Assembly (NCBI GenBank): GCA_017856605.1
Contig: JAFMES010000001.1
Coordinates: 1 to 46,222, forward strand
Direction of reading: 5' to 3'
Length of the DNA stretch: 46,222 bases
From: Chitinophagaceae bacterium
GTDB lineage: Bacteria; Bacteroidota; Bacteroidia; Chitinophagales; Chitinophagaceae
The stretch's first letter is position 1. The number at the start of each line of letters is the position of its first letter. This document shows positions 19,401 through 34,613 of the stretch, piece by piece. Under the pieces are notes generated by a model. It saw only the letters and a list, made by a program, of their open reading frames with translations, had not been told where the DNA came from and made no database searches. The position numbers and the translations under genes were made by a program.

Positions 19401-19612
19401 ATCTCAAGCGTAGAGTTGAGATTGCTGACGGAAAGCGAAAATGTACCGTCTGCAGCACTGGTAGTACCCGTTTGGGTTCCCGCTGCTTTGATCGATACAC
19501 CTGACAAGGGGGAGCCATCGGCATCCGATACTTTACCCTTGACAACTGTTTGTGCAAATACCCCTGGTATCGCAAAAAGCAAACAGCACATGAACAGTGT
19601 AAGTTTTCTCAT
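16403..19612 (-). CDS. SusC/RagA-family TonB-dependent transporter
   Basis: LQEVVVTAQG, PLFIVDGVP, ESINVLKG..A..LYG..GRNGVVMITTK, C-terminal F. Confidence 0.96.
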   Translation of the reverse strand: MRKLTLFMCCLLFAIPGVFAQTVVKGKVSDADGSPLSGVSIKAAGTQTGTTSAADGTFSLSVSNLNSTLEISYVGYEALRVRAGSNLSNIQMKSSTGGLQEVVVTAQGIRREKKALGYAVASVDKKALELRPDGDVVRLLNGKAPGVDILNASGMSGSGTNIIIRGVNTISGSSTPLFIVDGVPFDASTNAQASFVYGNTTSSRFLDLDPNSIESINVLKGLSATTLYGELGRNGVVMITTKNSATRKSNKKMEVTVSQSIFGNQVANVPEYQYSYGGGFDQSLGFAFFSNWGAKFKPDPGPYDSVNHPYNTAALAAAFPEYQGKKVAFKPIRNTVKNFFRTGLIRTTSVGVQSGGANGTFNANYTYMDDEGFTPGNRLIKNTFGLGGNAKLSNNFTIAGTFNYAITDYKAPPTATGFGSNPSASSVFGNLIYTPIAVDMLGLPYQNPLDGSSIYYRPANDIQHPLWTINNSFTGQKINRIFGNMSARYDLGKKMNLTYRVGYDQYGDYNFYSQNKGGTVGGNDFQLGMHRTSNGYNMIWDHSLLYNFQTDLNNDWRLNVDAGLNSQDRQYEQNGQQSTQQLVFGLFDHDNFIIHDNTSEGGGQLDYRSRYLSIGAFAQGLLSYKEYLYFTLGGRNSWSSNLEKANRSIFYPSASVSFIPTSAIESLRNNNFLNYLKFRAGYSTSANFGSVYQTRPILAIGTNVFNDRAGNIYNQNSISNRLANPNLSPELLQELEFGFEGKLLNNRLSVDFTYYNRNSKDQILSRDLDPSTGFTVTSINAGSVRNKGIELQLGYTVVRNKDWNWQIDVNYFQNRNKVSLPGEIKQIVIDGFSNEGLFAIDGKPLGVIQGYYALRDTGSTAVSAKPTGQRIVDANGNYISSSNIGIVGDPTPDFKLTGISTLSFKGITFRMQWDYTQGGDMLAYTPGTVVGRGLTKDTDFDRLKPLILPGVGRDGNPNTVQISASQAYFNNLSGFFGTADIITFDATCIRLREASLSYSLPSSVLSKSPFGSLSITFSGQNLFYNAPNFPKYVRFDPETSSLGVSNVRGLEYLSGPTSKRFGASIRVTF

Positions 19613-19719: not shown

Positions 19720-19980
19720 TCTGTTTAATAAATTAATCAAAATAAAAGGCCTTCTCTGAACAAGAAAGTCCCTCAAAAACTAAAAACGGAAAACGACTGT
19801 AAATCAAGGAGGTAATTTATTGCATATAATTATTATATATTTATAAGTATATGATTACTAAAATTTTAATAAAAAAATGAACTAGAATTGTCTTATACCA
19901 TTATTATATGTACCCAATTGATTTATTCACAATCCCGAAAATTTATTTTGTACTGTGGCCACAATTTGTAATTTAGTGGG

Positions 19981-20039
19981 AGAATTTAATGGGTTAGTAA
20001 GTACTAAAGGGTCGGCGTCAGCTGGCCCTTTGGTCTTTT
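19981..20039 (+). ncRNA. Candidate sRNA A (~59 nt)
   Basis: TTTG (19947) and TAATTTAG (19969-19976) promoter boxes; unpaired AUGGGUUAGUAAGUAC; 11-bp hairpin 20006-20031 followed by GGTCTTTT. Confidence 0.6.
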
Positions 20040-20119
20040 ATAAAATCACCCCGTTTTCCCATCATATCTCACGTGAATTATCACCTCGTTTTCATTGGTT
20101 CGATCTGTACCTTTAGTGC

Positions 20120-21484
20120 ATGAGTAAAGTGAAGAAAGCATTCTTTTGTAAAGAATGCGGACATGAATCACCCAAGTGGATTGGGAAATGTCCGGGTTGT
20201 CAACAGTGGAATACATTCATCGAAGAAATCATTCACAAAGAAAGTCAATCACAAAAAGCTTCTTGGAAAGAATCTTCTTCCAGTGATCAACGAAGCATCG
20301 CATTGCATGATGTGATTGCAGAAGATCATCCAAGAAAAATAACCAAGGATGCAGAACTCAATCGTGTATTGGGAGGAGGAATTGTACCAGGGAGTATTGT
20401 ATTGGTTGCTGGTGAACCAGGAATTGGAAAGTCAACGCTCTTTCTTCAAGATGCACTCATGATGCCTTCGTGTCGCATTCTTTATGTAAGTGGCGAAGAA
20501 AGCGAACAGCAAATTAAAATGCGCGCCAATCGCATCAATGTTGCACACGATGATTTTCATCTGCTCACGGAAACATCGACACAGAACGTGTTTCAGGAAA
20601 TCAAACGCATACGACCCGATTGGGTAATCATTGATTCAATTCAAACGTTGCAATCGCCATACATTGATTCATCTCCAGGTAGCATTTCGCAAATCAGAGA
20701 ATGCACTGCAGAATTTCAACGCTTCGCAAAAGAAACACAAACACCGGTGTTTCTGATTGGTCATGTTACTAAAGATGGAAATATAGCGGGACCAAAACTA
20801 TTGGAACATATGGTGGATACCGTATTGCAATTTGAAGGCGATCAACATTATGCATACCGCATTTTACGCACCACCAAAAACCGATTTGGTTCCACCTCCG
20901 AGATTGGCATCTATGAAATGACGGGCAATGGAATGCGACCAGTTGACAATCCATCCGATATACTGATCAATCAAAAAGAAGAACAACTCAGTGGAATCGC
21001 CATCGGTGCTACCATGGAAGGATTGCGTCCATTGCTCATCGAAGTACAAGCATTGGTTACCCCTTCGGTATACGGAACTCCACAACGTACTGCAAGTGGT
21101 TTTGATTTAAGAAGATTGCAATTGCTATTGGCCGTGCTGGAAAAAAGAGGTGGATTTCATTTTGGGACCAAAGACGTGTTTGTCAATATTGCAGGGGGAC
21201 TCAAAGTAGAAGATCCGGCAATCGATCTGGCCATGGTCTTTGCACTGCTCAGCTCCTATGAAGATGTGCCCCTCTCCCAAAAAATCTGCTTTGCTGGAGA
21301 AGTGGGATTGAGCGGGGAGATCAGAGCCGTCAATCGGGTTGATCAACGAATCTCCGAAGCAAAAAAACTTGGATTCGAACAGGTCGTCATCAGTAAATAC
21401 AATCGCCTCGCTGAACCCCATAAAGGAATCACAACCACCCAAGTGGCGCTGATCGAAGAAGTGTACCGATCGTTGTTCCCATGA
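20120..21484 (+). CDS. radA: DNA repair protein RadA/Sms
   Basis: C4 zinc finger, GEPGIGKS, KNRFG, Lon-like C-terminus. Confidence 0.97.
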   Translation: MSKVKKAFFCKECGHESPKWIGKCPGCQQWNTFIEEIIHKESQSQKASWKESSSSDQRSIALHDVIAEDHPRKITKDAELNRVLGGGIVPGSIVLVAGEPGIGKSTLFLQDALMMPSCRILYVSGEESEQQIKMRANRINVAHDDFHLLTETSTQNVFQEIKRIRPDWVIIDSIQTLQSPYIDSSPGSISQIRECTAEFQRFAKETQTPVFLIGHVTKDGNIAGPKLLEHMVDTVLQFEGDQHYAYRILRTTKNRFGSTSEIGIYEMTGNGMRPVDNPSDILINQKEEQLSGIAIGATMEGLRPLLIEVQALVTPSVYGTPQRTASGFDLRRLQLLLAVLEKRGGFHFGTKDVFVNIAGGLKVEDPAIDLAMVFALLSSYEDVPLSQKICFAGEVGLSGEIRAVNRVDQRISEAKKLGFEQVVISKYNRLAEPHKGITTTQVALIEEVYRSLFP

Positions 21485-22194
21485 TGCCATCTCCCTCACG
21501 TCTTATCATCCGAAACCTGAGTTCGGTGCTTGATCTCTTTCTACCCCAACCTTGCCCTGGTTGTAGATCCGCCATCCTCAATCACCAAGAACACCTGTGC
21601 ATGCACTGCTCCCTTACCCTTCCTTATACCCAATTTGAAACGCTTCGTAATCATCCGCTGGAAAAATTGTTTTGGGGACGAATTCCGTTTGGTTTTGCAT
21701 CTGCAACCTGGTACTTCCTTGATCATTCTCCTATTCAACACATCATACACGCCATTAAATACGAAGACCAACACGTGCTTGGCATTCACATGGGAAAGCA
21801 AATGGGCCTGCGTGTTCAACAACTGATAACCGACTTTCCCATCGATCTGCTGGTGCCAATGCCACTGCATCCAAAAAAAGAAATAAAACGAGGGTACAAC
21901 CAAGCAGAGCTGCTGTGCAAAGGAATTGCAATGACTACTGGTATTCCGATTGGAAACCGTGCAATTCAACGAACAGTCCAAACAAAAACACAAACCAGGA
22001 AAAGCAGATCTGAACGATGGGATAATGTACATACTGCTTTTTCTGTTGCACAACCCACTGCCATTCACTCAAAAAATATTGCTATAGTAGATGATGTCAT
22101 CACCACCGGAGCCTCACTGGAAGCATGCGGTCGCTCAGCACTACTCCATGGCGCCTCCTCTGTCTCGTTTCTGGGAATGGCCTTCACGGCTTGA
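21481..22194 (+). CDS. ComF-family phosphoribosyltransferase-like protein
   Basis: CxxC...CxxC, RGYNQA, VDDVITTGAS. Confidence 0.9.
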   Translation: MMPSPSRLIIRNLSSVLDLFLPQPCPGCRSAILNHQEHLCMHCSLTLPYTQFETLRNHPLEKLFWGRIPFGFASATWYFLDHSPIQHIIHAIKYEDQHVLGIHMGKQMGLRVQQLITDFPIDLLVPMPLHPKKEIKRGYNQAELLCKGIAMTTGIPIGNRAIQRTVQTKTQTRKSRSERWDNVHTAFSVAQPTAIHSKNIAIVDDVITTGASLEACGRSALLHGASSVSFLGMAFTA

Positions 22195-22260
22195 CACGCT
22201 TCCTTAGCTCACAACCTTTTCCCTACTTATTCGTTAATTTAGAACAATAAAACCAACGTT

Positions 22261-22779
22261 ATGATCCGAATGCTGATGCTGGCACTGCCACTTTTCTTCC
22301 TGAATCCGACTTCCATTCATCGTTTTAAAGTAAGCGGTATAGACGGATCCACCATCGATTTTTCTGCATTCAAAGGGAAGAAAATTCTCATCGTGAACAC
22401 TGCCTCCAAATGCGGATACACCCCTCAGTATGCCGATCTGGAAAAACTATACAAGTCCTACGGAAACAAACTGGTGATTGTTGGATTCCCTGCTAATAAT
22501 TTCGGGGGACAAGAACCTGGTTCGAATTCAGAAATCAGCGAATTCTGTAAAAAGAATTACGGCGTCAGTTTTGTCATGGCTGAAAAAGTATCAGTTAAAG
22601 GCGAAGACATGCACCCCTTGTTCAAATGGCTTACCCAAAAAACAGAGAACGGCGTAATGGATGCTGAAATCCGTTGGAACTTTACCAAATTTCTTCTGGA
22701 TGAAAAAGGACAACTCCTCGCCGTATTTCCCAGTAAAGTAAATCCCACCAGCGAAGAGATCACGCGCTTTCTGCAATAA
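22261..22779 (+). CDS. Cys-type glutathione peroxidase family protein with signal peptide
   Basis: NTASKCG, GFPANNFGGQEP, WNFTKFL; -7 box TAATTTAG at 22235. Confidence 0.93.
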   Translation: MIRMLMLALPLFFLNPTSIHRFKVSGIDGSTIDFSAFKGKKILIVNTASKCGYTPQYADLEKLYKSYGNKLVIVGFPANNFGGQEPGSNSEISEFCKKNYGVSFVMAEKVSVKGEDMHPLFKWLTQKTENGVMDAEIRWNFTKFLLDEKGQLLAVFPSKVNPTSEEITRFLQ

Positions 22780-22818
22780 ACCCTCCATCGCAAGACGGCC
22801 CATTCCTTACCTTTGGGC

Positions 22819-23952
22819 ATGCGATTTGCAGAATTAGCGGGACAAGAAACAATCAAAGAAAAATTAGTAGGATTGGTCGACTCCAATCGACTCAGTCATG
22901 CATTATTGTTTCTTGGCAAAGAAGGCTCTGGAGCACTGCAACTCGCCATCGCGCTTTCACAGTACATCGTTTGTGAAAAAACAGTTTCTAACGACAGTTG
23001 TGGTACCTGTCCCGCCTGCATCAAAGCGCACGCACTCAGTCACCCCGATATCCATTTCTCTTTTCCCACCATTACCCGAAACAGCGGCGATAAACCGGTA
23101 TGTTCCGATTTCATCATCGAATGGAGAAGCTTTGTTGCCCAAACACCATTTGGAAATGCATACGATTGGTTGCAAGCAGTGGGTGCAGAAAATAAACAAG
23201 GCAACATCACTGCGCATGAATGCGAAGACATCATCCGAAAACTGCAACTCAAAAGTTTTGAAAGCGGATACAAAGTCCTCATTCAATGGATGCCCGAATA
23301 CCTGGGTCAATCTGGCAATAAACTGCTCAAACTGATTGAAGAGCCTCCGCCAAAAACAGTATTCATTTTTGTTGCAGAAGACGAATCACGCATCCTTCCC
23401 ACCATCCTGTCCCGCACGCAACTGATCAAGATCAATCCACTGGAAACAGCATCGCTTGAACAATGGCTGATCGAGCATCAGGCAGTGCCGCGTGAGAAGG
23501 CACGTTCCATTGCTCCGATGGCGCATGGAAACATGCGGGAGGCATTTCAAATTTTACACCACGCGGATGAAGATTGGCAAGAATTACTTCGTCAGTGGCT
23601 CAATGCAATTTTGAAAAATGGTCCCGCTGCTCAACTCAAATGGGTAGAAGAAATGGCAAAATTGGGAAGAGAAAAACAAAAACAATTCCTGAATTACTTC
23701 ATCCATTTGCTGTCGTCTTCAATCCGTATTCTGCACACTGGCACAACTCCTTCGGCAACTGAGGTCGAAATCGACTTTGCCAATCGCCTTACCAAACTTG
23801 CTTCAACCGAACAGGTCAGTGCCATGGTGGATGAACTGGGCAGCAGCATTTACCACATCGAACGCAACGCAAATCCTAAGATCCTGTTCATGGCCCTCAC
23901 CATTAAAATAAGCCACATCCTAAGAGATAAATCGTTAATTTTGACTAACTAG
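22819..23952 (+). CDS. holB: DNA polymerase III delta' subunit
   Basis: HALLFLG, CGTCPAC, HPDIH, NKLLKLIEEPP, TILSR. Confidence 0.9.
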   Translation: MRFAELAGQETIKEKLVGLVDSNRLSHALLFLGKEGSGALQLAIALSQYIVCEKTVSNDSCGTCPACIKAHALSHPDIHFSFPTITRNSGDKPVCSDFIIEWRSFVAQTPFGNAYDWLQAVGAENKQGNITAHECEDIIRKLQLKSFESGYKVLIQWMPEYLGQSGNKLLKLIEEPPPKTVFIFVAEDESRILPTILSRTQLIKINPLETASLEQWLIEHQAVPREKARSIAPMAHGNMREAFQILHHADEDWQELLRQWLNAILKNGPAAQLKWVEEMAKLGREKQKQFLNYFIHLLSSSIRILHTGTTPSATEVEIDFANRLTKLASTEQVSAMVDELGSSIYHIERNANPKILFMALTIKISHILRDKSLILTN

Positions 23953-24008
23953 GTCGCTGACCAAAACAATTTTGAATACCGCGCGAAAGCGTCTAAATAG
24001 ATCTGATA

Positions 24009-25289
24009 ATGGGATGTGGTTCATGTGGTACCGGCAAAGGTTCCCCTAAAGGATGCAAAAATAACGGAGGATGCAGCTCCGGTGGTTGTAACAGACTCAA
24101 TGTACATGACTGGCTTGCCAACTTACCCTTCACCGACCCGGCTGTTTCCTGCCGCATCGTTGAAGTGACCTTCAATAATGGAAGCCGTAAAGAATATTTC
24201 CGCAATACCACCCTGCACCATTTCAATAAGGGAGAGATCGTAAGTGTGGAGGGAGTGAGTGGGTTTGACGTTGGCGTAGTCAACCTCAGTGGCGAACTGG
24301 TCCGACTCCAACTCAAGAAAAAAAGAATTCCAGAAGACAGTGCTGATCTAAAGAAAATATTGAGACGGGCGACGGAAGTCGATATTCAAAAATGGGAAGA
24401 AAATAAGGCCCGTGAGAAGGAAGCTTTAGCCCGTTCACGTGCCATAGCACGACAGCTTAAGATTATGATGAAGATCTCCGAAGTGGAGATTCAAGCCGAT
24501 GGAAGAAAAGCAACATTCTTCTATACCGCAGATGATCGTGTTGATTTTAGAGAGCTCATCAAGATCTATGCTTCGGAATTCAAAGTAAAAGTTGAAATGA
24601 AACAAATTGGCGCGCGACAAGAAGCGGCCAAAGTTGGTGGCATCGGAAGCTGCGGCAGGGAACTATGCTGCAGCAGCTGGCTGAATGACTTCAAGAGCGT
24701 TACAACGGCCATGGCTCGCTACCAGAACCTCAGCATCAATCAAACCAAGTTGAGTGGACAATGCGGCCGACTCAAATGCTGTTTGAATTATGAACTGGAT
24801 ACGTATCTGGATGCGCTGCAACATTTTCCGGATCATGCCGATGTACTGCAAACCGCAAAAGGAAATGCCCAATTGATTAAAAAAGATATTTTCAAAAATT
24901 TGATGTGGTACACCTTGCCCGATAGCAGCAAGCAATATCCACTAAGCATAGAAACGGTTCAAAAAATAAAAGCACTCAATGCAAAGGGAATTCGACCTGA
25001 AGAACTTGAAACTTCCGAACCGGTAAGTGCAAAAACAAAAGAAGTTGAACCACAGTTTGTGGATGTAGTCGGACAAATCAGTCTCCGTTCATTGGAAAGA
25101 AACGCACAGAAAAGGAAATCAAGAGAAAAATCTACTTCAAATAGACCAGGAAGTTCAGGCAATAGGCCGTCTTCCAACAAACCAGCCTCTCAACAACGCA
25201 GGCCACACGGTCCTTCACGCAAACCAGATGGTCCTCAACGCCCGATTGCTCGTCCCCAGAAGCCGAACAACCCAACACAGAACAATTAA
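24009..25289 (+). CDS. ricT: RicT/YaaT (PSP1 domain) Fe-S protein with low-complexity tail
   Basis: RVDFRELIK, GSCGRELCC, GQCGRLKCCLNYE; follows holB. Confidence 0.9.
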   Translation: MGCGSCGTGKGSPKGCKNNGGCSSGGCNRLNVHDWLANLPFTDPAVSCRIVEVTFNNGSRKEYFRNTTLHHFNKGEIVSVEGVSGFDVGVVNLSGELVRLQLKKKRIPEDSADLKKILRRATEVDIQKWEENKAREKEALARSRAIARQLKIMMKISEVEIQADGRKATFFYTADDRVDFRELIKIYASEFKVKVEMKQIGARQEAAKVGGIGSCGRELCCSSWLNDFKSVTTAMARYQNLSINQTKLSGQCGRLKCCLNYELDTYLDALQHFPDHADVLQTAKGNAQLIKKDIFKNLMWYTLPDSSKQYPLSIETVQKIKALNAKGIRPEELETSEPVSAKTKEVEPQFVDVVGQISLRSLERNAQKRKSREKSTSNRPGSSGNRPSSNKPASQQRRPHGPSRKPDGPQRPIARPQKPNNPTQNN

Positions 25290-26179
25290 CGATAAAGCAG
25301 GTAAGCGATCAGCCAAACGGCAGGTGCAGCCAGCAAGATGGAATCAAACCGATCCAAAAATCCTCCGTGTCCAGGTAAAAAAGTTCCACTATCCTTCACT
25401 TGAGCAAGTCGCTTTAACCGACTTTCCAACAAATCACCAAAGGTTCCAGCAACAGCAGCTGTGGAAGCAATTATCAGAACTTCATAATTGGCTTCCCAAC
25501 GAAAAAATGCAAAGGCCCAGATCAGTCCGGCAGATAAAACAATTCCACCCACTGTTCCTTCCCAGGTTTTTTTGGGCGACCATTTTGTTAATGGAGTTTT
25601 TCCTATCCATGAACCAACAAGATAAGCCATCGTATCGTTGATCCATATGCTCACTACCATGAGAATGGCAACAAGCTTCCCACTGAATCCAGATATAGCA
25701 CTTGTAAATGCATCACTGCTGTTTCCTTGCATCCAGATCCATCCTGAACGCAGGTTGATCAGCAATGCAAGAAATAAGGAGATATAAACCACTCCTCCCA
25801 TCGATCGCGCCAGATGACGCACTGAAAAATTTCGATTGATGATGAACAGAATGGGTAAAAAATATCCACCCCATCGAATCAGTTGATACCCGACCTTGTT
25901 GAGTGGGATACCCATCAATACAAGGTGATCAGAAACTGCTACGAGTAAAAACCCCCAGCCAAACAATGGAAAAAAAATCCGATTCAACAATGACGTTGCA
26001 TCGAAGGAAGAATCGATGCGTACTGCTAATTTTTGATATTCGTACCAGCAACCAAAATGAACAATTGAAAATAAAATGAAAAACGACCATTCGTTCCAAA
26101 GCAATCCGGTTAACATGACGACCGCATAGGCAATTGCAGTCCTGGCGCGGGTTTGAAAAACTTTTTTATCGAGTGCCAT
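25286..26179 (-). CDS. cdsA: Phosphatidate cytidylyltransferase
   Basis: SPKKTWEG, GDLLES, KDSG..LPGHGGFLDRFDS. Confidence 0.95.
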   Translation of the reverse strand: MALDKKVFQTRARTAIAYAVVMLTGLLWNEWSFFILFSIVHFGCWYEYQKLAVRIDSSFDATSLLNRIFFPLFGWGFLLVAVSDHLVLMGIPLNKVGYQLIRWGGYFLPILFIINRNFSVRHLARSMGGVVYISLFLALLINLRSGWIWMQGNSSDAFTSAISGFSGKLVAILMVVSIWINDTMAYLVGSWIGKTPLTKWSPKKTWEGTVGGIVLSAGLIWAFAFFRWEANYEVLIIASTAAVAGTFGDLLESRLKRLAQVKDSGTFLPGHGGFLDRFDSILLAAPAVWLIAYLLYR

Positions 26180-27065
26180 CAGATACCATTTGATGGAACT
26201 TGCGGATGAACCCGATCAGGAGCGCTGTTGCAACAATTCCTGCCCACCATGGAATCTGCTCCATCAAGCCATCGTCAATCGGTCGACCTGCACTTCGCAA
26301 ATAATAAACTTCACCCACCGCCATGGCGTTATTAATCAAGTGCGCAACGATGGGTACCCAGAGATTTCCGCTTCTTCCATACAGCCAACCCAGAACGATA
26401 CCCAAAGCAGTTCGTGCAAAAAATCCGTAGTACGAAAAATGAATGGCACTGAACAACAATGAAGTAACGATGATGCTTACCCATAATTGTCCCGTTGCCC
26501 GGTACATCATATTTTGAAATGTGCCCCTGAAAAAAAACTCTTCAACAATTGCAGGTACGAGTGCCATGGTAATCAGCACCACCACCAGGTCTTTCCAGTT
26601 TTTCATTTGAGACATCACTTCAATCTGCTCCATGTAACTCGCCTCCATGTCTTTGAAGTAAAGCTCCATCTGGGCAGATAATGGTATCCATTCAGTGAAT
26701 TGTGCAAGCATGCCGGCTACCAGAACCATCAACAGCATCACGACCGCACTGAATCCATAAGCCTTCCACTGAAAAGGCCGATTTAATTGAAAATAGTTAA
26801 TCGGAGATTTGGTGACAGCACGAACTGCGATCCAGGAAGGAACAAAAAATATAAAGAGGGCAAGAAGGGTTTGAGCAATTCGGACTTCCATCGCACGGGA
26901 AGGATCCAACATCGATTCGGGAGAAAAAACAGTACCGGTCATCGCCTCCCAGGCAAAATAGGCGACAAAACCGCCGATCATATACCCCATCGCCATCAAC
27001 CCAATCAATAAAAACAATGCACTTTTTTCATGCATTCCCGTCCGATCTGTATTCTCCCATTCCAT
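26166..27065 (-). CDS. CPBP-family (CAAX/Abi) intramembrane protease
   Basis: EEFFFRG, FSAIH, AHLINN; multiple TM segments. Confidence 0.9.
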   Translation of the reverse strand: MEWENTDRTGMHEKSALFLLIGLMAMGYMIGGFVAYFAWEAMTGTVFSPESMLDPSRAMEVRIAQTLLALFIFFVPSWIAVRAVTKSPINYFQLNRPFQWKAYGFSAVVMLLMVLVAGMLAQFTEWIPLSAQMELYFKDMEASYMEQIEVMSQMKNWKDLVVVLITMALVPAIVEEFFFRGTFQNMMYRATGQLWVSIIVTSLLFSAIHFSYYGFFARTALGIVLGWLYGRSGNLWVPIVAHLINNAMAVGEVYYLRSAGRPIDDGLMEQIPWWAGIVATALLIGFIRKFHQMVSDGTR

Positions 27066-27092
27066 ACTCTTATTTGTAACTTTGCGCTGTTC

Positions 27093-28091
27093 ATGATAAA
27101 GATAGGCAACATAAGCTTACCATCGTTTCCCTTGCTGCTGGCTCCCATGGAGGACGTCAGCGATCCGCCCTTCAGAGCCGTATGCAAAAAAAATGGCGCC
27201 GATCTGATGTTCACGGAATTCATCAGCAGTGAAGGATTGATTAGAGATGCGATCAAGAGTCGCCAAAAGCTCGACATCTTTGAGGAAGAACGACCCGTAG
27301 GCATTCAGATATTTGGTGGAGACGAAGAAGCGCTAGCGCTCAGCGCACGGATAGTTGAAACTGTTCAACCAGATTTACTCGACATCAATTTTGGATGTCC
27401 TGTTAAAAAAGTTGTTTGCAAAGGAGCAGGTGCCGCAGTGCTGAAAGATGTTGACCTGATGGTTCGATTGACCAAAGCAGTAATTGCTTCTACTCATCTT
27501 CCGGTAACTGTGAAAACCAGATTGGGATGGGACCACTCTTCCATCAATATCTTGGAAGTAGCAGAACGGTTACAAGACATCGGAATACAAGCGCTCTCCA
27601 TCCACGGTCGCACCCGCAGTCAACTCTACAAAGGAGAAGCGGATTGGACCTGGATCGCAAAAGTCAGGGAAAACCCTCGTATCCATATTCCCATTTTTGG
27701 CAATGGAGATATTGATTCGCCCGAAAAGGCATTGGAATATAAAAACAGATACGGTGTGGACGGCATCATGATTGGTCGCGCTGCCATCGGAAACCCCTGG
27801 TTCTTTCGTGAGGTAAAGCATTTTTTTGCAACTGGTGAGAAACTGTCTCCTCCTACCATGGAAGAAAAACTTACGGTAATTCGACAACACCTTCGAGCCT
27901 CCATTGCTTGGAAAGGAGAAAAACTGGGTATTTTCGAAATGAGGCGTCACTATGCAAACTACCTGAAAGGAATTCCACACATCAAATCCCTGCGTACGCA
28001 ACTGGTAACGCTTGGTACCCTCTCGGAAATAGAGGCAGTGCTGGATGAAGCCGCAAAAACCGCTACACATGAGTACAGCACCTTGGTCTGA
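27093..28091 (+). CDS. dusB: tRNA-dihydrouridine synthase B
   Basis: LAPMED, DINFGCP, HGRT, NGDI, MIGRAA; start ATG 27093 after TAACTTTG. Confidence 0.93.
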   Translation: MIKIGNISLPSFPLLLAPMEDVSDPPFRAVCKKNGADLMFTEFISSEGLIRDAIKSRQKLDIFEEERPVGIQIFGGDEEALALSARIVETVQPDLLDINFGCPVKKVVCKGAGAAVLKDVDLMVRLTKAVIASTHLPVTVKTRLGWDHSSINILEVAERLQDIGIQALSIHGRTRSQLYKGEADWTWIAKVRENPRIHIPIFGNGDIDSPEKALEYKNRYGVDGIMIGRAAIGNPWFFREVKHFFATGEKLSPPTMEEKLTVIRQHLRASIAWKGEKLGIFEMRRHYANYLKGIPHIKSLRTQLVTLGTLSEIEAVLDEAAKTATHEYSTLV

Positions 28092-29169
28092 TCAGATCGA
28101 CTCCCCTTCGCTAATTGTATATCCCAAGATCGTACGTGCCAATATCGAAGAGATGGTTCGGATGGCAGGATCAGCAGAGCGTCTTCGTCCACATATCAAA
28201 ACTCATAAAACCGCTGAAGGCATCCAGTTGATGCAACAAGCGGGTATTGATAAATTCAAATGTGCCACCATTGCAGAAGCAGAGCTCTTGGGGATGCAAG
28301 GCGCAAGGGATGTTCTATTGGCACATCAACCAGTGGGACTAAAAGCGAAACGATTATTGGAATTGAAACGCGAATTTCCTTCCACTACCTTCAGCACGAT
28401 TGTTGACAATGCTGCTTCAGCAATTGCGCTTGGAAATTATGTTCAAGAACAACAGGAACAACTTCATCTCTTCATCGATTTGAACGTGGGGATGAATAGA
28501 ACCGGAATTCATCCGGGTGATGAAGCGTTCGAGTTGATTCAACTGATTGTTGGTCACCCTGCTCTTGTATTCTGCGGCTTGCATGCATACGACGGACAAC
28601 ATCGCCATCCCAATCCTTTGGAAAGGGAAAAAGCTTGTGATGCAGGCTTTGCATCAGTTCTAGCCTTAAGGAAAAAATTAGTCGAGCATGGAATCCCTGA
28701 ACCGATAATCGTTGCAGGAGGTTCACCTACGTTTTCGATACACGCAAAACATCCCGATCGGGAATGCAGTCCGGGCACCAACATCTTTTGGGACCACGGC
28801 TATCACCTGATCTGCAGCGAACAATCGTTTACACCTGCGGTCCACATCCTCACCCGCATAATTTCAAAACCAGCTCCGGGTCGCATTTGCCTGGACCTCG
28901 GCCACAAAGCAGTTGCAGCAGAAAATGAACTCGCTAAGCGCATCCACTTTCCTGATCATCCAGATTGGGTGGCAGTGGGACAGAGTGAGGAACATTTGGT
29001 GATAGAAACACCCAACGCAGATGCGTATTCAGTTGGAGACGTCTTTTTGGGTATCCCCTATCATGTCTGTCCAACAATCGCACTTCATGAATCCCTTACG
29101 GCCATTGAGGATGATCGCATAACTGGAGCATGGAAAGTGGTTGCACGGAAAAGAGCGATCAGTATCTAA
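28069..29169 (+). CDS. D-threonine aldolase/D-serine dehydratase-like fold-III PLP enzyme
   Basis: LRPHIKTHK, CATIAEAE, HAYDG, QSEEH, PYHVCPT. Confidence 0.85.
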   Translation: MSTAPWSDQIDSPSLIVYPKIVRANIEEMVRMAGSAERLRPHIKTHKTAEGIQLMQQAGIDKFKCATIAEAELLGMQGARDVLLAHQPVGLKAKRLLELKREFPSTTFSTIVDNAASAIALGNYVQEQQEQLHLFIDLNVGMNRTGIHPGDEAFELIQLIVGHPALVFCGLHAYDGQHRHPNPLEREKACDAGFASVLALRKKLVEHGIPEPIIVAGGSPTFSIHAKHPDRECSPGTNIFWDHGYHLICSEQSFTPAVHILTRIISKPAPGRICLDLGHKAVAAENELAKRIHFPDHPDWVAVGQSEEHLVIETPNADAYSVGDVFLGIPYHVCPTIALHESLTAIEDDRITGAWKVVARKRAISI

Positions 29170-29209
29170 GGATGCATTTATTGTTAACTTTGAAGCTTAA
29201 CTCATTAAA

Positions 29210-29869
29210 ATGACCATACACAAGGAAGGCTTTCGTACGATTTTGATTGTTGGCTGGGCCATCGTTGCATTGATTTTTCTTTCACTCCAATACATTTACC
29301 CGCTGCAACCGATTGCACACATCCTCCTTTCCGTTGTATTGGTTGCATTCTGGCTATTCATCGTTTCTTTTTTCAGAATTCCTTCACGCAGATTCACATA
29401 CAAAGACGATGCATTCATTTCACCTGCAGATGGAAAAGTGGTGGTAATTGAGGAGACGGTAGATCCTGAATACTACAACGAAAAGCGGTTACAGATATCG
29501 GTATTTATGAGTCCCGCCAACGTCCACGTAAATCGATATCCTATTTCAGGTGAAGTGATATACAATCAATACCACAAAGGAAAATACCTTGTGGCATGGG
29601 ATCCTAAATCGTCAACAGAAAATGAACGGCACAGCCTTGTCATAAAAACTTCCCGCTGTACAGTTTTGGTGAAGCAGATTGCAGGTGCCTTGGCAAAACG
29701 AATTGTCAATTATGCAGAGGTTGGAAAATCAGTCAAACAAAACGAGGAATTGGGATTCATAAAATTTGGAAGCAGGGTTGATTTGCTTCTGCCACTGGAT
29801 GCAACTCCTGCGGTTAAAATTGGAGATCACGTTAAAAATGGCGTGACCGTTCTTGCCACATTGCCTTAA
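29210..29869 (+). CDS. psd: Phosphatidylserine decarboxylase proenzyme
   Basis: SPADG, NVHVNR, IKFGSRVD cleavage motif. Confidence 0.94.
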   Translation: MTIHKEGFRTILIVGWAIVALIFLSLQYIYPLQPIAHILLSVVLVAFWLFIVSFFRIPSRRFTYKDDAFISPADGKVVVIEETVDPEYYNEKRLQISVFMSPANVHVNRYPISGEVIYNQYHKGKYLVAWDPKSSTENERHSLVIKTSRCTVLVKQIAGALAKRIVNYAEVGKSVKQNEELGFIKFGSRVDLLLPLDATPAVKIGDHVKNGVTVLATLP

Positions 29870-30573
29870 AGTATAGCGGATAGGTCCCACAAACTATTCA
29901 ACACATAGGTTGGAACAGTTTTACCATCGTGTGGAACTGCTGTATTGAAATAGGCAGTATCCATTCCAATTTGTTGCGCTCCTAAAATATCAACATCTAA
30001 GGTGTCGCCAATCATGATGGAGCGATCAGCAGTGGTAGCTGCTTTTCCCATTGCGTATTCAAAAATTGCCGCATGCGGTTTCATGATGCCAGCTTGTTCG
30101 GAGGTGATGACCGATTGGAAATAGGAAGCAATTCCGCTGTTCTTTAGTTTTTGGTGTTGGGTCACTTCAAAGCCGTTGGTGATGAGGTGCATTGGATACC
30201 CTTTTGAGGTGAGGTAATCCAGGATCTCGCGACAATGAGGAAAGAGGTTGGGTTTGGTTGGAAGAATTTCCAGATAGCGTTCACTCATGTGTTTAGCCAA
30301 TGCCTCATCGGTGATTTTGTAATCCACCAAGGTCCTCCACATTCTCTTCCACCTTAGTTCATCCCGGTTGATGAATCCTTTTCGGAAACGATCCCAGTAG
30401 ATGGTGTTGTGGTGATGATAGGTTTGGTGGAAATGATCAAAATCATCCGTAGCAATGCGATGCAGTTCCAGTTCCTGATAGAGGTCCTTTAACGTGGCAG
30501 TAGAGTTCGTATCGAAGTCCCACAACGTATGATCAAGGTCAAAGAATAAATGGTCGTATTTCCTGGAATTCAT
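29866..30573 (-). CDS. YjjG-family HAD nucleotidase
   Basis: FDLDHTL, ITNG, KP, IGD...DILGA. Confidence 0.9.
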   Translation of the reverse strand: MNSRKYDHLFFDLDHTLWDFDTNSTATLKDLYQELELHRIATDDFDHFHQTYHHHNTIYWDRFRKGFINRDELRWKRMWRTLVDYKITDEALAKHMSERYLEILPTKPNLFPHCREILDYLTSKGYPMHLITNGFEVTQHQKLKNSGIASYFQSVITSEQAGIMKPHAAIFEYAMGKAATTADRSIMIGDTLDVDILGAQQIGMDTAYFNTAVPHDGKTVPTYVLNSLWDLSAIL

Positions 30574-30626
30574 GAAATGCAAAGCTAAGCAAGTGAGGAT
30601 TGTTACCTTTGGTTAAATTTCCCCAT

Positions 30627-31325
30627 ATGAACGTTGTGATCACCGGAGCATCTCAGGGAATGGGCAGAGCAATGGCAGAAGCCTTTGCTAAAGAGGGACA
30701 TGATCTCTTCCTGTGTGCCCGAAACATGGATAAAACTGCCGCTTGGCAACATTCCCTAATGAAAGAACAAGGTATTTCCATTACCAGTTTCAATGCGGAT
30801 CTTTCCAAGAAAGAGGGAGTGGATTCATTTGCGCACCAGCTGCTCAGCGCCACATCACGTATTGATGTATTGATCAATAATGCCGGAACCTATGAACCAG
30901 GATCAACCTATAATGAACCGGAAGGTGCCTTAGACCGGATGTTGTCCATAAATCTCCATGCGGCCTATCACTTAACTCGTGCACTGGTTGGAAAAATGAT
31001 CGAACAGAAAGAAGGTCACATCTTCAACATGTGTTCCATTGCAGCACTCAAAGCGTACGCCAATGGCGGTGCCTATAGCATCAGCAAATGGGCCATGGAA
31101 GGTTTCAGTCAAAATCTTAGGGAAGAGATGAAAGCCTTTAATATAAAAGTCACCACCATACATCCGGGAGCCACTTATACTGCATCATGGGAAGGATCTG
31201 GAGTGAATCCAGGGCGACTAATGGAGGCAAACGATATCGCTCAAATGGTTGTTGCAGCCAGCAAACTTTCCCCCCAGGCCTGTGTTGAGCAAATTATTAT
31301 CCGTCCCCAACTCGGAGATCTCTAG
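30627..31325 (+). CDS. Short-chain dehydrogenase/reductase
   Basis: TGASQGMG, NNAG, YSISK. Confidence 0.92.
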   Translation: MNVVITGASQGMGRAMAEAFAKEGHDLFLCARNMDKTAAWQHSLMKEQGISITSFNADLSKKEGVDSFAHQLLSATSRIDVLINNAGTYEPGSTYNEPEGALDRMLSINLHAAYHLTRALVGKMIEQKEGHIFNMCSIAALKAYANGGAYSISKWAMEGFSQNLREEMKAFNIKVTTIHPGATYTASWEGSGVNPGRLMEANDIAQMVVAASKLSPQACVEQIIIRPQLGDL

Positions 31326-31335
31326 CTCAGTGCTA

Positions 31336-32043
31336 TTAGATGTCGGAGAACTTATACCCTACACCCCGAACAGAATGAAAATGCTTGGGCTCACGGGGAT
31401 CCTGTTCAAAGTATTTTCTAAAACTGAGAATGAAATTATCAATGGTACGTGTAGTAGGGAATACCTGGTAGCCCCAGACAGCTTGTAAAATCTTTTCTCG
31501 GGAGACCACCTCATTGCGAAACTCAATCATGAGCTTGAGCAACATGATTTCTTTTTTACTAAGGCTGATCAGCTCTCCTTTATGATTGGTGGCATTTTGT
31601 GCTTTAAAATCAATGGTATTGCCTCCAAAACTATAGGATTCACCAACCGTAGTGTGCTCTTGTATTTTTCTATTTTTATCAATGAGTTTCTCAATGCGTA
31701 GCAACAACTCTTCCAAATTGAAAGGTTTGGTCAAGTAATCATCAGCACCCCGTTTGAGGCCCGTCACTCGGTCGTCTGACCCCGAACGTGCACTGAGCAT
31801 GAGAATAGGAGAATCGATATTCTTCAGTCGTATACCCTGGCAAACATCAAAGCCATCTACTTCCGGAAGCATGACATCCAGAATGATGAGATCAAAATAT
31901 TCAGCTTCTACCCGCTTGAGAGCAAGTGCACCATTCTCAGCACAGGTAACAGCATAGCCTTCCAATTCGAGGTTCAATTTGAGGGCCTCTCGAAGATTTT
32001 CCTCATCTTCTACAACCAGGATATTGGCTTTGGATGAATTCAT
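31336..32043 (-). CDS. OmpR-family response regulator
   Basis: VVEDE, LDVMLP, KPF, winged helix ending SVRGVGY. Confidence 0.95.
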   Translation of the reverse strand: MNSSKANILVVEDEENLREALKLNLELEGYAVTCAENGALALKRVEAEYFDLIILDVMLPEVDGFDVCQGIRLKNIDSPILMLSARSGSDDRVTGLKRGADDYLTKPFNLEELLLRIEKLIDKNRKIQEHTTVGESYSFGGNTIDFKAQNATNHKGELISLSKKEIMLLKLMIEFRNEVVSREKILQAVWGYQVFPTTRTIDNFILSFRKYFEQDPREPKHFHSVRGVGYKFSDI

Positions 32044-33026
32044 TCAGCAGATTGTTTGGGTAATACAATATTAAAAATACACCCATTTGGCTGATTGTCC
32101 TCAACCGATAACCTGCCTTTGTGGTTTTGTACAATACGTGAACTCAGATAGAGTCCCAATCCCGTCCCTTTCGTTTTGCGTATCCGCTCATCTTCCAGTC
32201 GATAAAATTTTTCAAAGACTTTCAATTTTAATGGATCGGGAATACCGGGACCCTGATCGGCTACCTGAATGAGCAAAGCGTGGGACTGATCCTTCAATGA
32301 AACTACGATTGGTGCATTAGCAGGAGTATACTTGATTGCATTTTCAATCAGATTATTAAACACGAGGCGAAGCACAAGTTCTTCTCCAAAAAATCCTATC
32401 CCCGAGGGAATATCAGACTGAATGGTGCGATCGGGATAGCGTTTTGAAAATGAGGCCACCGAAGCAGTTAATGCTCTGGAGCAGTCAAACTCCATTTTGG
32501 TGGATTGATATCCCCCTGCATCCATTTGTGAACTCAGGAGGATGTTATTACAGAGCATATCCAACCGCTCCGCTTCATTCAATGCATCGGTTAGCAGTTT
32601 GTCTTGCTTCTCCTGGGGAAGTTGGTGGCGTTGTAAGGTTTCAAGATTGAGCTTGGTTACTGCGATGGGTGTTTTGAGTTCATGAGTAACGGCTAACATG
32701 AAATTTTTCTGCTGCAAGTGATAGCGAATCTGACGGCGAACAGCACCATAAACAAAAATGGCACCCAAGATGGTAAAGATCAAAAAGGTCAGCCCCTCGC
32801 CAATGAATTGCTTTGCATTTCGATCATGTTCATCGATCACTTTTTCCAGGGTAATAGTACCGGCATTCCCCCTTGCGATCTGTTCCTGTTGAAAAGCCAG
32901 CATTTGATCATTTTGGTGATCCAGTTCAATGTACCACCAACCCAATGCGGCAACCAGATAGATCAACAACAACCAGTATACGTAGTTGATCAACCTCAAT
33001 GGTATTCGGTCAAAAATGCCCTTCAT
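32040..33026 (-). CDS. Sensor histidine kinase (2 TM)
   Basis: THELKTP, NLIENAIKY, DQGPGI, GTGLGL. Confidence 0.95.
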   Translation of the reverse strand: MKGIFDRIPLRLINYVYWLLLIYLVAALGWWYIELDHQNDQMLAFQQEQIARGNAGTITLEKVIDEHDRNAKQFIGEGLTFLIFTILGAIFVYGAVRRQIRYHLQQKNFMLAVTHELKTPIAVTKLNLETLQRHQLPQEKQDKLLTDALNEAERLDMLCNNILLSSQMDAGGYQSTKMEFDCSRALTASVASFSKRYPDRTIQSDIPSGIGFFGEELVLRLVFNNLIENAIKYTPANAPIVVSLKDQSHALLIQVADQGPGIPDPLKLKVFEKFYRLEDERIRKTKGTGLGLYLSSRIVQNHKGRLSVEDNQPNGCIFNIVLPKQSAE

Positions 33027-33027
33027 C

Positions 33028-33495
33028 TTATTTGACTTTTTCAATCCTCAATCCCATATTCACCACGCCTTCCAATGGCTCAACCCGCATGTCGTGCGAG
33101 ATCCGAATGGTATATTCACCCGGTTTACTGAATTTGACTGCATCGCGATAGAGCAATACCCGATGATCAAAGAGATCATCCATGCCGGTACCCAACCACT
33201 TGTCATCTGTTGCCAATCGCACTTCAAATCGCTCCGAACGTTCAACGGTTTCACCAGGAAGTCGACTCTTTATCTTGATCCATATATTACTAAAGGGATA
33301 GGCATCGGTATGACGCAGTATAAAATAAATACGATAACTGGCAGACGTATCGCTGATGGTAAAATTTAAAGTTGGCTCAAGGGAACGCGACCAAGTTGCA
33401 GAGGGAGTAAAGACAACTTTTTCATAAAGACCAGTGTCTTCACAAGCAGAAAGAAAAATCCACAAAGGAAAAATCAAATATCGCAACTGGCGCAT
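33028..33495 (-). CDS. gldH: Gliding motility lipoprotein GldH
   Basis: Lipobox FLSAC, LRH...YPFSNIW, KWLGTG, HDMR; start ATG 33495. Confidence 0.88.
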   Translation of the reverse strand: MRQLRYLIFPLWIFLSACEDTGLYEKVVFTPSATWSRSLEPTLNFTISDTSASYRIYFILRHTDAYPFSNIWIKIKSRLPGETVERSERFEVRLATDDKWLGTGMDDLFDHRVLLYRDAVKFSKPGEYTIRISHDMRVEPLEGVVNMGLRIEKVK

Positions 33496-33532
33496 GCAGC
33501 AAAGGTATGGATCCTTGTTCAATGGCTTCGCA

Positions 33533-34408
33533 TCAGAGCACATTGAGCACCTGCTCTTTAGCTTTTTCCAGCTCATCTTTCATCTCAACAACCGACTTTT
33601 GAATTTCTGCATCGTAGGCCTTTGAGCCCATGGTGTTGATTTCTCTGCCGACTTCCTGCAATAAAAAAGAAAGCTTGCGACCCTTGGCGATTTCGCCTTC
33701 CTGCATCAGCTTTTTAAAATAGCTGCAATGATTTGATAGCCTTACTTGCTCTTCCGTGAGATCGATTTTTTCCAGATAATAAATCAATTCTTGCTCAAAT
33801 CGATTGGTATCCACCTGATCCTTCCCAACCTGATCCTCCAACAACCGATTCAACTGCTCCCGTATTTTAACCTGGCGCTTGGGAGCCAATTCGCCAATTT
33901 TGTTTTGTAGGCTTATAATATTATCAATACGCAGAACCAGTTCCTTGCCCAGAACACGGCCCTCATCTTCCCTATGCAAGTTCAACATGGCGATTGCCTG
34001 CTGAAGGGTTTCTTTGCATGCAGCCCACTCCTGCTCATCAACGATGTCCGTTGTATTGGATACCACCTCGGGCAATCGCAGAATGGAGGCAAGTAATTGA
34101 CCCGTATCTGCACCCATAGTTCCCGCCAACTCGCTCAATTGACGGTAATAGGATGCGGCCAACTCCGTATTGATTGTTGATGGTTTGGAGGATCCATTTT
34201 GTTTGATGGTGATGGTGCACTCCACACTTCCGCGCAACAAACCTTCAGATAATTGAGAACGAATTTCAAACTCAAAGGGCTTGAGTGAAGGTGGAAGTTT
34301 CAATAACAATTCAAATTGCTTGCCATTGAGTGAACGAAGCTCTACAATGAATTCTTTATCATTCACTGCACGTTCCGCTCTTCCAAATCCGGTCATCGAA
34401 CGTATCAT
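33533..34408 (-). CDS. yicC: YicC/YloC-family endoribonuclease
   Basis: MIRSMTGFG, RG.VE, EE..RL..H, GRKL.F..QE..RE.NTMGSK, EKAKEQ. Confidence 0.93.
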   Translation of the reverse strand: MIRSMTGFGRAERAVNDKEFIVELRSLNGKQFELLLKLPPSLKPFEFEIRSQLSEGLLRGSVECTITIKQNGSSKPSTINTELAASYYRQLSELAGTMGADTGQLLASILRLPEVVSNTTDIVDEQEWAACKETLQQAIAMLNLHREDEGRVLGKELVLRIDNIISLQNKIGELAPKRQVKIREQLNRLLEDQVGKDQVDTNRFEQELIYYLEKIDLTEEQVRLSNHCSYFKKLMQEGEIAKGRKLSFLLQEVGREINTMGSKAYDAEIQKSVVEMKDELEKAKEQVLNVL

Positions 34409-34435
34409 GGTTCTGTGATTTTATTGTATAGATAC

Positions 34436-34468
34436 AAAAAAACAGCGTCCGGTTGAAACCGGACGCTG
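34436..34468 (-). terminator. Intrinsic terminator just upstream of yicC
   Basis: CAGCGTCCGGT/ACCGGACGCTG 11-bp stem followed by U7 on the minus strand. Confidence 0.85.
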
Positions 34469-34509
34469 ATATATAGATGGGTTAATAAGTACCGGGAATA
34501 AAATTCCCT
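34436..34509 (-). ncRNA. Candidate sRNA B / yicC leader (~74 nt), complementary to sRNA A
   Basis: -7-like TAATATTG (34520-34513); 5' hairpin GGGAAU/AUUCCC; unpaired GUACUUAUUAACCCAU; strong terminator. Confidence 0.6.
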
Positions 34510-34613
34510 ACACAATATTATAACTATATTTCATTAACAGAAAATTTTTTTTATACTATTTTATTCACACTTTGAGTTTTTATTGTGAATTACATTTGCC
34601 ACAAACGCCCATC

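Follow-up and report, generated by a model that had tools for sequence, protein, structure and literature searches.

Why a 16-nucleotide (nt) word should occur twice in intergenic DNA is the question raised by a stretch of 46,222 nt from a Chitinophagaceae bacterium (assembly GCA_017856605.1, contig JAFMES010000001.1, positions 1 to 46,222 of the forward strand; hereafter the window). The word is ATGGGTTAGTAAGTAC at 19989-20004 and its partner, 14.5 kb away, is ATGGGTTAATAAGTAC at 34477-34492; these are the sole two copies, at one mismatch or fewer, in the 2,137,325 bases of the genome (2.14 Mb, 91.6% complete). The first site (A) is flanked by a susC-like gene and radA and the second (B) by yicC and lpxD, as a sequence-only reading of the window had stated. 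That reading proposed a small RNA (sRNA) and a dedicated antagonist, or an sRNA and its target leader, and left the roles open. Comparative evidence now favours A as the likely regulator, which would act on the ftsZ leader, with B as its likely sponge. It is considered very probable that A and B both function as RNAs and pair with each other.

A putative promoter for A was located on the + strand at 19947..19976, consisting of TTTG (19947-19950), 18 nt and the -7 box TAATTTAG (19969-19976). Its counterpart for B is the -7 box TAATATTG on the - strand (34513..34520), which was invariant at seven of eight positions in 46 aligned sequences that had been chosen for carrying a -7 box. Both were matched to what we take to be the Bacteroidota promoter consensus. 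Predicted RNA A (19981..20040, + strand, about 60 nt, start placed from conservation) would open with an exposed seed (19982..20004), of which the 3' part pairs with B and the whole can pair with ftsZ leaders, and would close with an intrinsic terminator (20003..20040) of 14 pairs, where a terminator-like site was called at 20003-20034. Predicted RNA B (34436..34508, - strand, 73 nt, start likewise placed from conservation) would consist of a 5' hairpin (34494..34508), the single-stranded anti-seed GGUACUUAUUAACCCAU (34477..34493) and an intrinsic terminator (34436..34468) with 11 pairs and seven U, the called site being 34468-34443. The boxes and terminators noticed beforehand were recovered on the expected strands; 0.4 (A) and 0.3 (B) terminator-like sites are expected per shuffled region, and the folding z-scores at both units were -4.2 to -6.3.

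The 16-bp duplex with a G-U extension that had been proposed was reproduced by computation, the two RNAs forming 17 contiguous pairs including G-U, and co-folding of full-length A and B gained 16.5 kcal/mol over the separate folds. The anti-seed carries here a U which wobbles with A, the commonest form in the family having C at this position. Both segments had been placed outside the hairpins. This is correct for the anti-seed of B, but the last bases of the segment in A overlap the foot of the terminator stem (from 20003), so it is not wholly outside, and seed positions 19-21 are mostly paired. Since the 5' hairpin of B is missing in some lineages (L075 and L145; 74% of alignment cells pair), it appears to be dispensable. 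A 5' hairpin in A (AUUUA/UAAGU), seen by eye in some lineages, was discarded, as it occurs neither in the consensus fold nor in the ensemble of this genome.

Of 300 family genomes, 276 (126 of 135 genera) contain the exact 13-nt core of the word, usually in two copies, and a backwards-read control core gave 0 in most rows, which points to more than chance. The typical genome holds one unit A, with the core on the RNA strand followed by a terminator, and one unit B of opposite polarity. In a draw of genomes across the phylum the exact core was found in 21/21 family genomes, 0/13 other genomes of the order and 13/379 genomes outside the family, once each; eight of these outside copies were examined and all lie in open reading frames (ORFs), none forming an intergenic unit. 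Based upon a covariance model of A, 14 of the 24 family genomes without an exact core do have an A unit at E 2e-5 or better, and in other families of the order only weak matches (E 2.6e-4 or worse) were obtained, in 7 of 26 genomes. Named records matching a 20-mer of A, estimated at about 1800 stored stretches, overwhelmingly bear the labels Chitinophagaceae, its genera or broader Bacteroidota groups; records with unit A include those of Sediminibacterium ginsengisoli DSM 22335, Parafilimonas terrae DSM 28286 and Flavihumibacter fluminis RY-1. Among 120 named-genome matches, 117 have a TAnnTT[A/T]G box at a near-fixed distance and all 120 a hairpin and T-run downstream, while 48 aligned A sequences share the invariant block GAATTTA.TGGGTTAGTAAGT.

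Within the genus both intergenic units are better conserved than their flanks. The terminator stems covary, with two-sided changes in eight of nine consensus pairs for A and in seven of 11 for B, where 94% of alignment cells pair (18 genus sequences). In relatives the two units lie on separate contigs or at distances of hundreds of kb. A cis-encoded antisense pair was discarded, A and B not being opposite strands of one locus. Rfam 15 gave 0 matches in the window, and the weak matches at both sites were generic terminator matches far below threshold; the sequence-only reading had likewise recognised no family. A third type of unit, stand-alone and with its own -7-like box, was observed in L129 (G090), L150 (G111) and L548 (G118), at about position 1501 or 800; here a hairpin (ACTTAC...GTAAGT) ahead of the terminator encloses the seed in its loop.

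Both units were available for 71 genomes, among 90 with A and 91 with B, and in 54 of these 71 the longest uninterrupted A:B helix is of 15-18 pairs. Cognate partners pair at a mean of -23.3 kcal/mol and permuted partners at -22.0 (0/5000 permutations as good, a figure which relatedness inflates, kin not being independent). Two-sided changes were identified in G044/G178 (GUG:CAC), G180 (AAU:AUU) and G097/G216 (GU:AC), and in G159/G250 the pairing slides to the 5' end of A. With box, seed and covarying terminator conserved in opposite polarity and the two partners changing together, the evidence argues for the sRNA and dedicated antagonist first proposed.

The two partners are not equally conserved. 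The common core occurs in 72/90 A units against 41/91 B units, and the 5' octamer of A is identical in 74/90 A units though usually left unpaired by B (many units were found via the exact core, and this genus is over-sampled in these counts). B is the more variable, often through changes that keep a G-U pair, and A is, as judged from these alignments, the more constrained partner. The greater variation of B, together with the conservation of an octamer which B does not pair, suggested another partner for A.

A search for the complement of A in five genomes gave seven matches besides A, three of which lie shortly before a start codon, one being that of ftsZ, in G162, where this site came to light. 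Four other relatives have in the ftsA-ftsZ spacer a site 26-51 nt upstream of the ATG, with energies of -12.7 to -15.8 kcal/mol. An independent set was then available in 80 metagenome ftsZ loci, 76 with a usable leader, of which 27 form one clade with four family FtsZ proteins, the presence of A there being assumed from the clade. At -14 kcal/mol or better, 15 of these 27 pair with A no more than 70 nt from the ATG, and 19 do so if the limit is set at 150 nt, compared to 1/49 of the other ftsZ loci and to 43/1658 and 22/468 genes of this genome.

Compensation between A and the leader was seen in two of three variant lineages. The ftsZ leader of G097 pairs at -14.2 with its own variant A and at -9.2 with the common A; for G044 the values are -12.7 and -10.3. 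The sites contain G-U pairs and bulges of one base; on the leaders of G303 and G195 the central G that varies in A bulges out. Several family leaders (L693, L694, L715) contain the word ACTTACTAACC which B exposes, and B therefore reads as a target mimic, likely a sponge imitating the ftsZ leader. By this comparison ftsZ is by far the most consistent target of A found.

Copies of the seed were also found at the 3' ends of mRNAs. Of 27 extra exact core copies examined, 20 are in sense orientation directly before a terminator and seven are without one. The 20 belong to recA (nine genomes), a BrxA/BrxB bacilliredoxin gene (six), an HTH_3 plus peptidase S24 gene (two) and stand-alone units (three). 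At recA, bacilliredoxin, HTH_3-S24 and rpoD genes the copies sit between stop codon and terminator, the rpoD match spanning the stop codon itself. The HTH_3-S24 architecture is that of Bacteroidota SOS repressors as portrayed in the accessible part of PMC8565304, and by this architecture the gene is SOS-repressor-like. In a set picked for variant B units, from which a genome without B, a truncated contig and a genome without a recA match had been dropped, 9 of 28 recA genes (27 genomes) have 3' ends pairing with their own B at -15 or better, compared to 28/1711 genes of this genome.

The recA 3' site of G195, G072 and G284 reads GUG, like the partner of B, when A itself has GAG. At rpoD, the end GGU-UAA-UAAG across the stop codon matches the derived U of B in 10 of 14 genus genomes with the variant, this genome among them (contig C150, one mismatch), and in 0/5 without it. 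On these sequences the 3' sites follow the variants of B, not those of A. The recA copies can also pair with their own ftsZ leaders, at -14.8 to -19.1 in three genomes, which the rpoD copy of this genome cannot (-8.1).

The SOS boxes of Bacteroidota are given as CTAA-N5-TTAG and GGA-N5-TCC in the portion of PMC8565304 consulted. Neither palindrome was found in 500 nt around unit A or unit B, and the seed word, matching neither, was rejected as an SOS operator. Two words of the CTAA-N5-TTAG type were noted by eye upstream of recA (L606) on G000:C231. A tblastn search of the assembly of this genome with one HTH_3-S24 protein found no such regulator.

Copies of the seed also occur in a large phage. 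Two near-identical viral contigs representing one phage (L422 and L423) show 22-nt identity to the seed of A followed by a terminator, at L423:6158-6210 (= L422:2065-2117), and the longer phage record (G717) has a second seed-plus-terminator with the GUG variant (L769:5130-5185). The 132-kb record is estimated to be 40% complete and includes tail-fibre genes; no match to the phage stretch was obtained among GenBank phages. Besides B, 16 of the 27 family-type ftsZ leaders pair with the first copy. Two of 44 phage ORFs in L423, both small, have an A-complementary site just before the ATG (12191 and 2757), and the energy of the second-best site was reached by 8/300 shuffles. Shine-Dalgarno sequences, which Bacteroidota start regions typically lack, were not seen by eye in the phage ORF start regions. 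Of 28 viral matches to the 16-mer, 26 look fortuitous, with no unit resembling A on inspection by eye. One contig of a viral collection (L424:1501) has an A-like seed, the 5' octamer and a hairpin overlapping longer ORFs.

Upstream of both units lies the word TTATTCACA, which we take to resemble a DnaA box. On the + strand at 19923..19931 it ends 37 nt upstream of the -7 box of A; at 34561..34569 (+) it lies 40 nt upstream of the -7 box of B, reversed with respect to it, in a region shared with the divergent lpxD promoter. A DnaA-box-like word was present within 100 nt upstream in 83/114 A loci, 71 of them at 37 nt (10.6 in shuffles), and in 87/90 B loci (12.9 in shuffles), where 64 have it in reverse orientation at 40 nt. 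Most promoters examined of nrdJ, the class II ribonucleotide reductase gene, bear such a word at a similar place, by eye.

At the level of sequence, then, conservation, opposite polarity, compensating A:B pairing, a site for A in ftsZ leaders and seed copies at 3' ends are in place, from which we infer expression, the sign of regulation, control by DnaA and processing of the 3' ends. The circuit would operate as follows. Both RNAs would be made, and A would cover the A-rich region before the ftsZ start codon, blocking initiation or triggering decay, so that FtsZ synthesis falls. B would remove A by means of its longer and stronger duplex. When the mRNAs of recA, the SOS repressor or other stress genes rise, their 3' ends may soak up B or act as extra A; uptake of B would leave more seed free and division would be delayed. 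In some species the stress-gene 3' ends may pair with ftsZ directly, and the DnaA-box-like words could link the A/B ratio to the replication cycle. The whole circuit, in which A represses ftsZ, B is the sponge of A and stress-gene 3' ends shift the balance to division arrest, is regarded as the probable explanation, with appreciable room for doubt. Its widest form would be an RNA-only division checkpoint in which DnaA sets the A/B ratio, any stress gene can join by evolving a 13-base seed before the terminator, a step taken repeatedly by recA, bacilliredoxin, SOS-repressor and sigma-70 genes, and the phage has copied the seed twice to stop host division; this is offered tentatively and may well be wrong.

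Several observations weigh against this circuit. Nothing convincing was found by the A model in 10 of the 24 family genomes without an exact core. A and B carry uncompensated changes in G058 (two mismatches), a central A-A mismatch in five genomes and a G-A mismatch in five others. In eight of the 27 family-type ftsZ loci no site reaches -14, even when 150 nt are considered; the G195 leader prefers the common A (-17.4) over its own (-15.0) and that of G044 pairs best with the A of G097. The ftsZ site of this genome is itself weak, with seven contiguous pairs and -9.8 kcal/mol about 13-19 nt before the ATG (contig C4). Nor did the 5' regions of this genome, with genes called by a crude ORF script, show a genome-wide excess of complements of A or B, nor the stretches before 113 called terminators an excess of B complements.

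The 3' ends have difficulties of the same kind. At the -15 cut-off 19 of the 28 recA genes lack a seed site, and the seed was not found at the recA and bacilliredoxin 3' ends of this genome; no convincing site was seen at seven S24-type and seven bacilliredoxin-like 3' ends of variant genomes. The rpoD pattern is confined to one poorly resolved clade, so that it may represent one or two events, and outside the genus the site was seen by eye in just 2 of 21 genomes. The A and B transcripts are predicted only, the public RNA data, which consist of assembled contigs, being uninformative on both, and the sign of any effect lies beyond the reach of sequence.

The same data admit other readings. B could be the main regulator, binding immediately 5' of the terminators in recA, rpoD, bacilliredoxin and SOS-repressor mRNAs and altering their stability or 3' end, with A a decoy resembling a bare mRNA 3' end and ftsZ secondary. 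The following of B's variants by 3' sites in two separate lineages agrees with this, as do the recA 3' ends of G292 and G023, which pair with a part of B that A leaves unpaired, and the rpoD end of this genome, at -16.7 with B and -8.1 with the ftsZ leader. Left unexplained would be the ftsZ-leader sites (15/27 vs 1/49), the conserved 5' octamer of A and the greater tolerance of B for wobbles and mismatches; moreover the 3' sites are patchy, whereas A and B occur almost throughout the family. We consider this reading unlikely, though worth keeping in view. Less probable still is a genuine sRNA-sponge pair whose main targets are other mRNAs, with ftsZ a minor one, or in which A activates ftsZ. 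The nrdJ leaders pair with A at a mean of -10.5 against -8.5 for shuffles (0/200; 10/200 for helix length), with 14-pair sites in G115 and G162, and a SWIB-domain gene in G133 (L675:1495-1512) has a 17-nt perfect complement including the 5' octamer, 13 nt before the ATG. Some ftsZ sites, in addition, are 60-125 nt upstream, beyond a hairpin. Yet strong nrdJ sites are limited to two of 25 leaders and ftsZ is far more consistent; for the SWIB-domain family no match was found in six genomes searched, the control genomes being equally blank.

A role of the 13-mer as DNA operator or as an RNA word bound by a protein, with the complementarity a by-product of opposed copies, seems very improbable. 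One protein of altered specificity would also give GTG in both copies, and the AUG-codon-UAG-UAA of A could serve ribosome binding. The 13-mer is non-palindromic and fits neither Bacteroidota SOS box (PMC8565304, as far as its available text goes), 20 of the 27 extra copies have a fixed polarity to the terminator after stop codons, the bulges and G-U pairs of the ftsZ sites are appropriate to an RNA duplex but not to a site for a protein, and the start codon of the seed is lost in G058. Cis-acting leaders or attenuators of radA and yicC, finally, would account for the fact that in most loci examined A precedes radA on the same strand and in many B precedes yicC, but radA has its own -7-like box, A is not upstream of radA in eight genomes (G044, G178, G195, G072, G284, G097, G216 and G293) and a pseudouridine synthase gene follows B in L135 and L145. 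Such leaders are scarcely credible. The sRNA with its target leader envisaged in the sequence-only reading is disfavoured likewise, because in some lineages A lacks radA as a neighbour, and B lacks yicC or lpxD.

The remaining observations concern single genes and the surroundings of the units. Among candidate targets of A, radC was rejected, as its 11-nt match here is not conserved in 29 relatives and 60/200 shuffles were as good. The class II ribonucleotide reductase gene on G000:C22 (L432) has a 10-nt A-complementary site in its leader and, in its promoter, a DnaA-box-like word that most relatives share. The seed of A at 19989-20000 reads AUG-GGU-UAG-UAA, that is, a start codon, one codon and two stops; the variants of most lineages keep ATG or GTG there. 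Downstream of A, radA (20120..21484, +) is the usual neighbour, its -7-like box lying just before the ATG. The yicC endoribonuclease gene (33533..34408, -) lies 3' of B here, B ending just before it (34408-34436), a linkage that is common and not constant. Members of the YicC family reportedly cleave sRNAs, according to a preprint. One RNA contig (depth 3.6) spans 34436-34487 into yicC-like sequence and gives no evidence either way on B. Freshwater metatranscriptome contigs of four studies give good coverage of the susC-like gene (16403-19612) that diverges from A, the runs having been retrieved with a stretch that includes the start of this gene.

If A represses ftsZ and is sponged by B as proposed, Chitinophagaceae would possess an RNA-only division brake, likely tied to DNA damage. 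The coupling of damage and replication to division is little studied in Bacteroidota, and the characterised sRNAs of the phylum, in those portions of the literature compared, come from gut genera. The present pair occurs almost throughout a large family of soil and freshwater, and its own sequence points to its target, ftsZ; cell length would be a simple read-out in cultured strains. It may represent a natural case of co-evolution of an sRNA, a sponge, a target and competing mRNA ends, and the copies in the phage hint at a way of taking over the host. The pair is undescribed in the literature searched and in Rfam, although an unnamed entry in a supplementary transcriptome table could exist, and this family-wide sRNA and sponge are apparently new.

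The nearest relatives in anatomy are FopS and GibS of Bacteroides thetaiotaomicron, which in the consulted text of PMC11697453 resemble A: an intrinsic terminator follows a single-stranded 5' seed, there are multiple copies, one of them phage-borne, and repression takes place near start codons. FopS differs in being described from Bacteroidaceae and in targeting susC mRNAs, and it is deposited in Rfam according to the same text (PMC11697453), where no model matches A or B. IroR, MasB and a 2026 review were also compared, from partial texts (10.1101/2025.09.08.672848; PMC10994844; PMC13750123).

In target, A would resemble DinR of Klebsiella pneumoniae and DicF of the E. coli Qin prophage, both of which repress ftsZ (PMC10907235, available text). 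DinR is, as A would be, an sRNA pairing with the ftsZ leader; arising from an SOS gene's 3' end, it delays division after DNA damage, in parallel with the recA 3' copies, while the prophage-borne DicF parallels the seed copies of the phage. By its description in that text (PMC10907235), DinR is set apart as Klebsiella-specific, Hfq-dependent and 157 nt long. Unlike it, A would be a stand-alone gene of about 60 nt kept family-wide and opposed by a counter-RNA of its own, and its seed recurs at several stress genes that are unrelated to one another. A has no SOS box within 500 nt; the recA 3' copies of relatives fit the DinR type of anatomy, their processing being predicted. Bacteroides reportedly lacks Hfq.

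For B, the comparison is with QrrX of Vibrio cholerae, SroC, SprY and FtsO (PMC12101431, in the part available), independently encoded or mRNA-derived RNAs that pair with the seed of an sRNA and inactivate it. No sponge is mentioned in the Bacteroidota sRNA literature searched for that word. B would share the mode of action of these sponges, and differs from them as a stand-alone gene that is co-conserved with its partner in 100+ genera, that shows compensating changes and that is matched by mRNA 3' ends.

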